From: Candidatus Thorarchaeota archaeon | GTDB lineage: Archaea; Asgardarchaeota; Thorarchaeia; Thorarchaeales; Thorarchaeaceae | DNA length: 32,000 nt | Assembly (NCBI GenBank): GCA_008080745.1 | Contig: SHMX01000001.1 | Coordinates: forward strand, 450,001 to 482,000 | Direction: 5' to 3' | In this document: piece by piece, positions 2,985-5,848 of the stretch | How positions within the stretch are numbered: the first letter of the stretch is position 1 | Layout of the letters: every line of letters starts with the position of its first letter | Translations under genes and position numbers: made by a program | Notes under the pieces: generated by a model | What the model saw: only the letters and a program-made list of their open reading frames with translations | The model's database searches: none | Told to the model about the DNA's origin: nothing

Positions 2985-3092
2985 GGATGAAAGGAAGTAA
3001 AGTATGAAAATAAACAATTCGAGAGACAGCCATAATGCTCATTAGAGGACTTCACACTAAAGGTGATAGATAAATTCAGCAGGTGAATTCCC

Positions 3093-4268
3093 GTGAGTGG
3101 AAGAAGACGGCTAATCTATTTTGACACGACCCAAAATGAGCGTGGTAGACTTGATACCACATATTCGGAACTTGGAAGTTTTCTTCGAGACCATGATTTT
3201 GATGTGGAACCGTATACCGAATTCATGATTCTCGCAAAAAAAATAGAAGAGGCCGACGTGATTGTCTTTGGATGTCCTAATAGTTCAAAACTAAGACCTG
3301 CTGAAATCGACGTTCTGAAGTCTTTTGTACAAAAAGGAGGCGGACTCATGCTATTATCTCTCTCGGGAGGAGACCGGGGATTAATGAATAATATGAGTCA
3401 GGTGTCAAAGGAATATGGAATCACCTTTGAAAATACTGCAATAAAAGATGAGAGAAATAATGCCGGGCTTCCAACTATGCCCTTGATTACTGATATTGAA
3501 CCACATGTCTTGACCGAAGATGTCACCGAGATGCTGTATCCCTCCGGTTGTAGTCTCAGTACCTCAGGAAAGGCTGTTGTGATTGCTAAGACATCTGACA
3601 TGGCCGAACCATCATCAGAACCCATCATTGCAGCGGCGGAACACGGAAAGGGACGGGTTCTTTGCATTGGAAGTTATGAAATATTCAGAATAGGTGGGGG
3701 TCTCAAGCATGATGGTAATCGTACTTTTGCTCTGAATGCATTTAGATGGTTGGCTGGCGAAACAAGATTAGCCCGACCAAGTAGAGTTGCAGCTGCTCAG
3801 GAATCAGCCCAGGAAGGGACTGAAACTGTTACATCAGCAATGTCCGAAGAGGTTGAGAAGACTTTACGACGTCTTGTAAATGCGGTATTTGACCTTCAGA
3901 AAGATATTGCAAAGGCAACAGAGAAAATAGATACCGTTGAAAAGAATATCGAGATGCTGCGCGATCAGTTCCAAGATTTTGCAGAAAAGACTCAGAAACA
4001 GCTGGGAATAATCATACCATCAAAACAGTTTCAGACTGCAGAAGAGAAGGAGTCTTCTGAGATAGAATCCGATATCAAATCATTGGAGAAGGAGATACGT
4101 TCGGTAAGACAACTAAGAGATCATGTTGAGGATCGCCATTCATCTGGAGCAATGAAACGCGATGTATATGATGAACAAGTAGAAAAGCTGGATATACGAA
4201 TAGAGAGTCTTCAGAAGAGAATTGAGGAAAAGAAAAAGAGTCTAGAAGAAATCAATGGTGAAGAGTGA
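3093..4268 (+). CDS. GIFT (GldG/IFT52-like) domain protein with C-terminal coiled coil
   Basis: N-terminal ~220 aa has a class I glutamine-amidotransferase-like pattern (DVIVFGCP..LRPAEIDVLKSFVQKGGGLMLL..GG, YPSG.SLS, GKGRVLCIGS, N..F..NAFRWL). The last ~150 aa is heptad-rich and charged. No signal peptide or transmembrane segment. Confidence 0.8.
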   Translation: MSGRRRLIYFDTTQNERGRLDTTYSELGSFLRDHDFDVEPYTEFMILAKKIEEADVIVFGCPNSSKLRPAEIDVLKSFVQKGGGLMLLSLSGGDRGLMNNMSQVSKEYGITFENTAIKDERNNAGLPTMPLITDIEPHVLTEDVTEMLYPSGCSLSTSGKAVVIAKTSDMAEPSSEPIIAAAEHGKGRVLCIGSYEIFRIGGGLKHDGNRTFALNAFRWLAGETRLARPSRVAAAQESAQEGTETVTSAMSEEVEKTLRRLVNAVFDLQKDIAKATEKIDTVEKNIEMLRDQFQDFAEKTQKQLGIIIPSKQFQTAEEKESSEIESDIKSLEKEIRSVRQLRDHVEDRHSSGAMKRDVYDEQVEKLDIRIESLQKRIEEKKKSLEEINGEE

Positions 4269-4270
4269 AC

Positions 4271-5848
4271 TCATGCCGTCATTTCGTATCGTTCAGGATA
4301 AATAGTATTTTCAATTTTTTTCTTTATTTCGTCCATTCGAGAAAATACCGAACTAAATCTAAGATGCAACAGTTTTGAAACCCAACCAAAAGGTGCAATC
4401 AAAATACTCCAGAAAAGTCCCACTTTTGATGCTAAGGCATATCCTAAGGTTATGATAATAACAGCAAATAGATAAATCTCTCGTGGAGGAATTAGAATAA
4501 ACAGACTCAGTGCAATTGGCAACCAGAACATACTGAACGAAAAGGACACATGCTCTTCTTTGCTTGTCACCATCTCTGTTGACGATAGAATTGAGAAGAA
4601 TGGTGCCATTAGCACGAAATAATATTTGAAAACACCACGAGGTCCAGCTAGGTATACCCACAGCATCATAATCAAGGATAGGAACAGCAAACGTCGAAGA
4701 TATACATTGATTTGTGAGTTATCACGGGGTTCTAAAAACATGAGACCAGCAATTAGAATTACTCCAAAGTACAAAAGAAATCCATAACGTATAATCTCAT
4801 TCATCAGTTCTGCTACTTCAGGTAAACCAGCCATTACTGGTAGGTATGGCAATGTAATCGGAGTACCATATCCAGGAGGTTCTGTAAATGGAGGTTCTAA
4901 TGGAAATCCACCCATTGCCAACCGCATATAATCCAACATATAGGGTTGCGAGATAATGAATGGTAACATTATTGATCCAACAAAGATCAGCACGATTAGA
5001 GTGTATTTGATAAAACCAGGAATGTCCAAAGTGGTATTGATTTCATCAATTATTCCCGATGTGCCTTGAGCTTCTTCAGTTTCTCCAATAGGCATTTGTT
5101 GTTCTTTTTTGGATTTATCGGATTTCCCTCTTATCAGAAGAAAGGCAATCAAAGGGAATCCGAGAAACCACGCGGTCTGTTTGAAGAGTGCTGCAACTAC
5201 AATCAACAGGGTTCCAGCTAGTTTATTCCCACGAGTAAGCATATAGAAACCCATGAAGAAAAAGAAGACAAATGGTGCAGGGTTCATCCAAAGGAATACT
5301 GAATGATAAAGGACGCTAGGACTGAGCAGATACGTAAAAGCAGCCGCTTCTCCAACATGACGGTTATCTGACAATTCTCTTCCAATACCATAGACTGGAA
5401 AAACAGTCAGATAAGAGAAGATTACCAAAAGAAATCCAATACCCCAATTATCCACAGGAAGCATTATACCCAGTGCATAAAAAAGTGCAGTGAGCGGGGG
5501 AAAGATGTACAAGCCATTCTCATTGACGTACCAGCCAATTTCACGGTATCCGAAATCAGGTGTGTAAGGCATAACACCGTCAAGCATATTGTGACCCCAG
5601 TGAACATAGTAAAAGCTATAGTCCGAATAGCCTTCAAATTGATACGATAAGGTAAAGCCGAAGAGTGAAAATTCGCCTTCACCCAACCAAACACTTCTAA
5701 AAATCCACAGGGATGTATCCAGATAGTCCTCAAGAGCGGCAGAAAATACTGACTGATAGACGAATACGCCAAAAACGAGAATGGCAATAAAAATACCATA
5801 TTCGTTGACAAATCGAATGACGTATCTGGGGTATCTGGATAGATTCAT
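4271..5848 (-). CDS. Multi-pass membrane protein, probable GT-C fold glycosyltransferase (GT87/mannosyltransferase-like)
   Basis: About 11-13 hydrophobic segments, first loop with YSDYSFYY..G.MPY..F and YIFPP, and a KQ motif (ALFKQTA). Confidence 0.7.
   Translation of the reverse strand: MNLSRYPRYVIRFVNEYGIFIAILVFGVFVYQSVFSAALEDYLDTSLWIFRSVWLGEGEFSLFGFTLSYQFEGYSDYSFYYVHWGHNMLDGVMPYTPDFGYREIGWYVNENGLYIFPPLTALFYALGIMLPVDNWGIGFLLVIFSYLTVFPVYGIGRELSDNRHVGEAAAFTYLLSPSVLYHSVFLWMNPAPFVFFFFMGFYMLTRGNKLAGTLLIVVAALFKQTAWFLGFPLIAFLLIRGKSDKSKKEQQMPIGETEEAQGTSGIIDEINTTLDIPGFIKYTLIVLIFVGSIMLPFIISQPYMLDYMRLAMGGFPLEPPFTEPPGYGTPITLPYLPVMAGLPEVAELMNEIIRYGFLLYFGVILIAGLMFLEPRDNSQINVYLRRLLFLSLIMMLWVYLAGPRGVFKYYFVLMAPFFSILSSTEMVTSKEEHVSFSFSMFWLPIALSLFILIPPREIYLFAVIIITLGYALASKVGLFWSILIAPFGWVSKLLHLRFSSVFSRMDEIKKKIENTIYPERYEMTA

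Follow-up and report, generated by a model that had tools for sequence, protein, structure and literature searches.

An Asgard archaeal family of soluble proteins with an IFT52-type GIFT head and a C-terminal helical hairpin

The origin of intraflagellar transport (IFT) is usually traced to coatomer-like proteins. To our knowledge, the IFT-B1 backbone protein IFT52 has no described relative in archaea, and the distant bacterial protein GldG is its sole prokaryotic link. In the literature that we searched, no link between IFT52 and Asgard archaea was found. IFT52 (OSM-6/BLD1) belongs to the IFT-B1 core (PDB 5FMR, 5FMS, and 8BD7 chain B). Its N-terminal GIFT head (IFT52N) is devoid of catalytic residues and serves as a docking surface: the IFT57/38 coiled coil and the tetratricopeptide repeats (TPRs) of IFT88 form a cradle around it, a contact for which residues K130 and R204 are needed (PMC4818760, PMC9753473). 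Here we analyze a gene located at positions 3093..4268 (+) of a 32,000-nucleotide stretch of a Candidatus Thorarchaeota archaeon genome (GCA_008080745.1, contig SHMX01000001.1, positions 450,001 to 482,000; hereafter the window), which encodes a soluble protein composed of a GIFT domain and a helical tail (hereafter the GIFT protein). Its head is a true GIFT domain of the IFT52 type and a homologue of the IFT52 head, and the soluble Asgard GIFT-head family to which it belongs (hereafter the core family) is undescribed.

The resemblance of the head domain to IFT52 is real and is seen in both sequence and structure. IFT52_GIFT (PF23355) is the best-scoring Pfam family, with 57.4 bits vs. a cut-off of 27.2, and when the single sequence was compared with all PDB sequences using HMMER (phmmer), IFT52 chains were the sole matches below an E-value (E) of 0.9 (4.3e-10, 1.9e-9, and 2.8e-8), far above chance. 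The HMMER alignments to the solved mouse and Chlamydomonas IFT52 proteins cover residues 49-118, 145-199, and 125-221 of the query and reproduce all three segments that the original prediction, made from the letters of the DNA alone, had aligned to human IFT52 in proposing a close resemblance. A profile built from 57 members of the core family matched Chlamydomonas IFT52 at 105.8 bits (E 1.7e-29) and mouse IFT52 at 89.5 bits, and the next PDB chain followed at 15.6 bits; the comparison between IFT52 and generic folds similar to glutamine amidotransferases (GATases), suggested together with that prediction, ended at 105.8 bits vs. 16 bits or less. The structural comparison suggested there gave the same ranking. 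Foldseek placed IFT52N crystal structures first, with template modelling (TM) scores of 0.88-0.91, root-mean-square deviations (rmsd) of 1.9-2.2 Å, and 23-25% identity, the best being 5fms_A (E 3.4e-19, TM score 0.88, rmsd 2.1 Å). These were followed by OST48/WBP1 at 1e-10, and then by GH42, ThuA-like, and GATase-like domains. Among Swiss-Prot models of the AlphaFold database (AFDB), mouse and human IFT52 came first.

The open reading frame (ORF) begins with GTG, ends with a stop codon at 4266-4268, and encodes 391 amino acids (aa). Its start is backed by homologues beginning with MSGRR and by GGTGA, a putative Shine-Dalgarno-like element 6 nt before the GTG (3082..3086, +, read from the sequence), and its assignment as a whole gene is based on the ORF list, the translation, the homologues, and the ratio of non-synonymous to synonymous divergence (dN/dS). 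The earlier range of 3093-3760 thus marked a real gene and covered only the N-terminal domain of a longer ORF, and the claim that the product is cytoplasmic, with neither a signal peptide nor a transmembrane helix, was borne out: no 19-residue window of the GIFT protein reaches a Kyte-Doolittle value of 1.6, and therefore neither element is seen by this simple hydropathy test. The protein comprises four parts, all encoded on the + strand. The GIFT domain (aa 1-228, 3093..3776), identified by Pfam PF23355, PDB searches, AlphaFold2 (AF2) modeling, and Foldseek, adopts a class I GATase-like alpha/beta fold with a predicted local distance difference test score (pLDDT) of 97-98 across residues 10-220. 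A low-confidence linker (aa 229-251, 3777..3845; pLDDT 48-75) varies in both length and sequence in the family alignment, which is why members of the family range from ~330 to 570 aa. It is followed by a long, coiled-coil-like helix in AF2 secondary structure, predicted with moderate confidence (aa 252-304, 3846..4004; pLDDT 70-80), and by an antiparallel C-terminal helical hairpin (aa 316-350 and 356-389, 4038..4259), which is conserved in the alignment and modeled with a pLDDT of 96-98. In the head, G82, G93, D94, N100, G187, and G193 are invariant in the family alignment, and the GG[DE]...N loop, P62, K66, E71, P173, and F198 are common to the family and IFT52. The motifs in common with IFT52 are mostly glycine, proline, and hydrophobic positions, in addition to the GG[DE]...N loop, K66, and E71.

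Homologues of the GIFT protein number 314 at E <= 1e-3. The best 120 of them, annotated as 'hypothetical protein' or 'DUF4350 domain-containing protein', are 63-100% identical to the query, and all family members that carry names are Asgard (Thor-, Prometh/Loki-, Hel-, Njord-, or Sif-archaeal). Among 301 Asgard genomes, matches to the family were present in 266, including 86 of the 90 high-quality ones, with clear orthologues of 40-50% identity in many Asgard families (referred to below by our codes f1, f2, and so on) and weaker paralogues only in two coded families tested with the profile. A comparison with the orthologue from the same genus gave a proportion of non-synonymous differences (pN) of 0.08-0.14, a saturated proportion of synonymous differences (pS) of 0.70-0.81, and a dN/dS of ~0.03. 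Non-synonymous differences of 8-14% set against saturated synonymous sites mean that head and tail are both constrained, and both halves of the GIFT protein are under strong purifying selection. In two genomes of family f27, the match to the GIFT orthologue contains one in-frame TAG (G280:C166:10831-11490 and G199:C144:4832-5491), which could reflect a broken gene or stop-codon recoding. The latter has reportedly been seen in some Asgard lineages.

The likeness to IFT52 comprises the same fold and most motifs over ~225 aa. Like IFT52, the GIFT protein is cytosolic, appears to lack the GATase catalytic residues, and has a globular head followed by a flexible part and, at the C-terminus, a binding module. 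Unlike in IFT52, this module is a helical hairpin, unrelated to any part of IFT52, and the ~25-residue insertion that separates the two halves of the IFT52 domain sets the two heads apart. A whole-genome search found no IFT52_central domain (PF23352), the part which binds the TPRs of IFT88 and IFT70, in the GIFT gene, and gave two sub-threshold matches elsewhere in the genome (15 bits). There was no genome match to the IFT46-binding Itf52_C domain (PF21178) at E <= 1, nor to IFT46 (PF12317) at E <= 0.1 in this 98%-complete genome; IFT88, IFT70, and IFT57/38 were not searched for. The family has only the head in common with IFT52 and is not a full IFT52.

The GIFT domain occurs in several other described protein types, which differ from the GIFT protein to various degrees. 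Bacterial and archaeal proteins of the GldG/ABC_transp_aux (PF09822) and DUF4350 (PF14258) families belong to the same domain superfamily, and the GIFT protein remains below both Pfam cut-offs (21.3 vs. 34.7 bits and 25.1 vs. 30.4 bits, respectively), as it does for GATase1_like (13.9 vs. 27 bits) and ThuA. Unlike GldG, it has no signal peptide, transmembrane anchor, or ABC-transporter neighbour, its neighbours being PolB, PCC-domain, HIT-family, multi-transmembrane, and Rad50/Mre11 genes. The lumenal GIFT domain of OST48/WBP1 and the GATase-like domain of S1P/MBTPS1 have the same superfold and are second-tier Foldseek matches (E 1e-10, TM score ~0.45), but these proteins are lumenal or membrane-anchored and their likeness to the family profile is undetectable at the sequence level (12.5 bits, E 0.56). 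DUF6421 proteins of Actinomycetota (PF19985) have a cytosolic N-terminal GIFT head of the same fold; they differ in being bacterial and fused to a 430-aa DUF6421 domain, the match of their profile to IFT52 is weaker, at 56.8 bits, and they branch far from IFT52 in trees. The GIFT heads of protein-kinase fusions from Methanobacteriota are equally close in fold. A cytosolic location, which the original prediction had presented as a trait linking the protein to IFT52 and separating it from other GIFT proteins, is indeed common to both, but it is not distinctive: the fold is matched just as closely by the DUF6421 proteins, by Asgard paralogues without transmembrane helices, and by small bacterial GIFT proteins, and at least some of these are also cytosolic.

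Two further observations concern the breadth of GIFT domains. Besides the GIFT gene, the genome that carries the window contains five or more ORFs with a GIFT domain (645-1463 aa; C1:295669, C1:292658, C5:172871, C4:35786, and C7:57542 among others), and related Asgard proteins are secreted or membrane-anchored and combine 2-3 tandem GIFT domains with CARDB/DUF11 modules; given these ORFs and tandem-domain relatives, the GIFT domain is much expanded in Asgard archaea. In addition, two crinoid proteins (P0252/P0276), Anneissia japonica LOC117112459 (1886 aa) and a protein of Antedon mediterranea (1889 aa), each contain ~10 tandem GIFT-like domains and an IMPa_N_2 domain and reach 197-229 bits in total with the profile of the Asgard family. 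The animal scaffolds that encode them are large (268 kb and 31.9 Mb), which suggests genuine animal genes, possibly of prokaryotic origin.

The placement of the IFT52 head was examined using maximum-likelihood (ML) trees. A word-indexed protein search with the family profile did not reach IFT52. The IFT52 sequences were obtained with a degenerate DNA pattern, derived from a peptide conserved between Chlamydomonas and mouse, which led on metagenome contigs to an intron-free IFT52 transcript; used as a query, this transcript retrieved 1442 IFT52 proteins, and the best 120 of these served as the source. The trees were built on 226-227 columns and comprised GldG and nine further GIFT groups in addition to 12-18 IFT52 heads and 22-30 heads of the core family. 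The grouping of IFT52 with the core family received a Shimodaira-Hasegawa-like approximate likelihood ratio test (SH-aLRT) value of 98 in a quick search under the C20 model (112 rows), and ultrafast bootstrap (UFBoot)/SH-aLRT values of 81/99 in a careful search (C20, 112 rows), 87/98 in a reduced set under LG+G4 (73 rows), and 90/98 when two TIR-fused or unknown rows were removed from the latter (LG+G4, 71 rows). Core-family rows alone formed the sister of IFT52 in 88-99% of bootstrap trees, and GldG, DUF6421, or a secreted-only group never did so; GldG occupied a very long separate branch. Within the family, IFT52 joined the longest branches, either Njord-labelled or the two rows of unknown origin, with weak support. 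A reciprocal search of the 301 Asgard genomes with an IFT52 profile returned the core orthologue as the best match in Thor-type genomes and several other families (f1, f2, f3, f7, f19, f21, and f27 in all), and probably also in f5, for which ORF length only was compared. Among the sequences sampled, the core family is thus favoured, though unproven, as the best-supported closest relative of the IFT52 head, for which reason the latter was probably recruited from an Asgard protein. One sequence included in this analysis, P0239 (L068:456-1661), combines a TIR domain with an IFT52-type GIFT domain and comes from a short metagenomic contig of unknown taxon; together with P0256, it is the nearest neighbour of IFT52 in one tree.

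The tail has a different set of relatives. Its hairpin carries the motif L..hE.+...SG.h....Y..Q..KL in the tail alignment, and a profile of 28 tails matched one PDB chain at E 1.7e-4, namely 8WHN (8whn_A), the cytosolic domain of OST1/ribophorin I from Ca. Prometheoarchaeum syntrophicum MK-D1 (PMC11417166). The same profile matched the C-termini of ~610-aa OST1/ribophorin-I-like ORFs, which have a signal peptide and a transmembrane helix, in three Loki-type genomes (L065, L066, and L067), as well as the end of a 553-aa cytosolic Loki-type protein at 40 bits (L062:49-1707 (+), genome G207). Comparison of the tail profile with the three OST1 tails using hhalign resulted in a probability of 88.4% and a score of 36.7, vs. 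at most 0.9% in 21 controls (scores of 11.1 for the reversed alignment and 6.8-14.8 for 20 column shuffles). The hairpin of the GIFT protein resembles the last one of the OST1 cytosolic domain; the two align over the last 70 residues, with the common motif L..LE....S.....h...Y..GKh....Y., and VIA-align superposed the tail on 8WHN with a Z score of 10.6 and an rmsd of 1.8 Å over 72 residues (19% identity). In OST1, a four-helix bundle lies behind a transmembrane helix and a lumenal domain, whereas the GIFT protein is soluble and has a single hairpin after its long helix. VIA-align also tied 8WHN (Z ~10-11) with CHMP4B, Snf7, and designed hairpins, the fold being a generic helical hairpin. Foldseek found nothing below E 0.5 for the tail, and the Pfam matches of ten tails all stayed below threshold, comprising coiled-coil families and a weak SHOCT signal (PF09851; 15.5 and 12.5 bits for family members vs. 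a cut-off of 27, the GIFT protein described here not being among the matches). We read the tail as an Asgard helical hairpin module common to other Asgard proteins, including OST1. A predicted homodimer of the tail (aa 229-391, two copies) scored 0.04, which gives no verdict. A similarity to the ESCRT-I headpiece (the Vps23 steadiness box or the Vps28 N-terminal hairpin) was considered and found unsupported: Vps28 N-terminal chains appeared at E 0.36-0.76 in the profile search and 0.64-0.83 in Foldseek, and Vps23_core, VPS28, and Mod_r were absent from the Pfam families listed for the ten tails (for three tails, the best 25 only).

We favour, by a modest degree, an explanation in which the protein is a soluble, non-enzymatic Asgard GIFT scaffold or adaptor whose head serves as a docking platform, and in which the IFT52 head was probably recruited from such a protein. 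That the GIFT protein is a non-enzymatic scaffold or adaptor is probable by analogy with IFT52. Its head would be a protein-docking platform, as in IFT52, and the most conserved motifs (the GGD...N loop, the H138 motif, and the P173 region) appear to align with or flank the conserved patch of IFT52 that contains K130 and R204. Through its tail, the protein would be linked to other copies of itself or to a partner, with the head held in place by this tether, and the regions binding IFT88/70 and IFT46 would have been added later, in eukaryotes. In a bolder version, the IFT52 head would derive directly from this soluble GIFT-plus-hairpin family of Asgard archaea, so that one core piece of the IFT machinery would be older than cilia and taken over from a cytosolic Asgard scaffold, with a tail module common to the ribosome-binding domain of OST1. 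We hold this version more tentatively, and it falls just on the doubtful side of our judgement.

Several observations weigh against these readings, and some of them also speak for a rival in which the protein is an ordinary member of the GIFT/DUF4350 superfamily without special kinship to IFT52, with IFT52 derived from a small bacterial GIFT protein or another Asgard paralogue and the likeness reflecting slow evolution of the family, an explanation we regard as unlikely but deserving serious consideration. In the reduced set (73 rows, LG+G4), approximately unbiased (AU) tests rejected no alternative placement of IFT52, whether the core family was made monophyletic without it (p 0.36) or IFT52 was placed outside the core and neighbouring groups (p 0.26), with other cytosolic Asgard groups (p 0.39), with GldG (p 0.18), or with DUF6421 (p 0.25). 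With 1.5-2.0 substitutions per site, IFT52 has a long stem, which joins the longest core branches, so that long-branch attraction is possible; the eukaryote sample was mostly opisthokont, and the small bacterial GIFT proteins were left out of the trees. In embedding and fold, these bacterial proteins (the Aquificota aq_1776 type and those of Thermodesulfobacteriota and Verrucomicrobiota) lie just as close to IFT52, whose embedding neighbours include bacterial clusters at the same score, and the DUF6421 heads have TM scores of 0.92-0.93 to the GIFT protein, the same as IFT52. In Loki-type genomes, a cytosolic paralogue of 305-420 aa scored slightly above the core orthologue in the IFT52-profile search. 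A match to Pfam IFT52_GIFT alone is not specific to the GIFT-plus-hairpin family, as non-core membrane-anchored Asgard GIFT domains score 73-80 bits (P0224 73, P0200 80) and a three-domain secreted Asgard GIFT protein reaches 102 bits in total, and the profiles of four other GIFT groups also found IFT52 as their best PDB match, at 57-77 bits vs. 106 for the core family. Against descent from such ordinary members stand this advantage of ~30 bits for the core profile, the ML trees and the large majority of bootstrap replicates that join IFT52 to the core family, and the separate position of GldG. Since the trees favour an origin of the IFT52 head in the Asgard family and the AU tests reject none of its alternatives, with the caveats of sampling and stem length in addition, this origin is favoured rather than secure. 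The phylogeny suggested with the original prediction thus joins IFT52 to the Asgard family, away from GldG and DUF6421, at a strength limited by AU p values of 0.18-0.39; of the archaeal precursor proposed there, a precursor of the head domain is favoured yet unproven, while a precursor of an IFT-B subunit was an overstatement, as only the head is in common. Other points bear on function. Of the two IFT-B2-binding residues of IFT52 (Chlamydomonas numbering), R204 is matched by E172 of the GIFT protein in the HMMER alignments, and K130 falls in the unaligned middle segment, beside the conserved histidine motif of the family. No gene neighbour is conserved across the phylum. Furthermore, the family-conserved polar residues D11, C61, S89, D119, C153/S154, and Y195 are absent from IFT52 and, as read from the alignment, could form a ligand site.

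The last point leads to an improbable alternative, in which the head is a ligand-binding or catalytic module acting, for example, on a sugar or nucleotide-sugar. The conserved polar residues, with D94 and H138 in addition to those named above, lie at the C-terminal ends of beta-strands, the Loki-type gene follows a same-strand NTP-transferase gene (GMPPB/eIF2B-like) with FGGY kinase genes nearby, and the GIFT domain was first proposed to be sugar-related (Beatson and Ponting 2004, cited in PMC4818760). On the other hand, no Cys-His-Glu triad is apparent at the GATase positions, the elbow position after strand 84-88 being Ser89, not Cys, when the alignment is read against the predicted strands; the GATase1_like and ThuA scores are below threshold; purified IFT52 did not bind sugars (PMC4818760); and the NTP-transferase neighbour is absent from Thor-, f7/f19-, and f27/f5-type loci. 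Gene context could instead point to an accessory or scaffolding role in DNA replication or repair, as the GIFT gene adjoins the replicative PolB gene in three Asgard families (f1, f19, and f7) and a same-strand ATP-dependent DNA ligase gene in f27 and f5, and lies beside Rad50-Mre11-HerA in Thor-type genomes. This role appears decidedly improbable: Loki-type loci have unrelated neighbours, the mostly divergent or convergent orientations mean that these are not operons, no PCNA-interacting protein (PIP) box or DNA-binding domain was seen in the protein, and housekeeping synteny by descent explains the pattern equally well. Equally hard to credit is a ribosome- or translocon-associated factor docking through the OST1-like hairpin. 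The profile and hhalign matches of the tail to OST1 speak for it, as does the finding that the OST1 cytosolic domain pulled down eukaryotic ribosomes (PMC11417166); yet the tail has only one hairpin of the four-helix bundle in common, its fold is generic and gave nothing significant in Foldseek, the same module occurs in the unrelated 553-aa cytosolic protein, and the faint SHOCT-like signal suggests a general oligomerisation module.

If the favoured explanation, a soluble Asgard docking protein from which the IFT52 head was recruited, is true, IFT52 joins the eukaryotic signature proteins with Asgard roots. The question could then be tested, since Loki-type (Promethearchaeota) genomes, which represent the lineage of cultured strains such as MK-D1, carry orthologues, and the partners of the GIFT protein could show the role of the GIFT platform before cilia. 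The tail module in common with OST1 suggests that Asgard archaea have a helical element for docking that can be reused.

The surroundings of the GIFT gene differ among Asgard lineages. In Thor-type genomes, the order is PolB, PCC, HIT, GIFT, multi-transmembrane protein, Rad50, Mre11; in f19 and f7, it is PolB, (PCC), GIFT, ARPC4-like; in Loki-type genomes, a GPN-loop GTPase, an NTP-transferase, and GIFT follow one another on one strand; and in f27 and f5, GIFT, the ATP-dependent DNA ligase, and a 200-aa protein do so. The recurrence of replication enzymes beside the GIFT gene is notable and may be explained by inherited synteny. The protein of ~200 aa encoded after the ligase in f27 and f5 is conserved and has no Pfam match (L031:8147-10622; equivalents in L044 and L046). 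Convergent with GIFT in two Asgard families is a gene for an ARPC4-like protein (ARP2/3 complex 20 kDa subunit; L032:5690-6262 (+), equivalents in L035 and L036), which scores 30.5 bits in Pfam vs. a cut-off of 22.2.

In the window, the GIFT gene stands alone, between a divergent HIT-family gene on one side and a convergent gene for a 525-aa multi-transmembrane protein on the other; farther out are PolB and a PCC-domain gene on the former side and a Rad50/Mre11/HerA-like cluster on the latter. The 75-nt divergent intergenic region common to the HIT gene contains the AT-rich sequence GATAAATT (3069-3076, read from the sequence). The multi-transmembrane protein (4271-5848, -) has no Pfam match even at E 0.01; in Thor-type genomes its gene is always convergent with the GIFT gene, and most of these genomes have two tandem copies. 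The stretch was also matched in two marine-sediment metagenome DNA runs, which may be its source sample.

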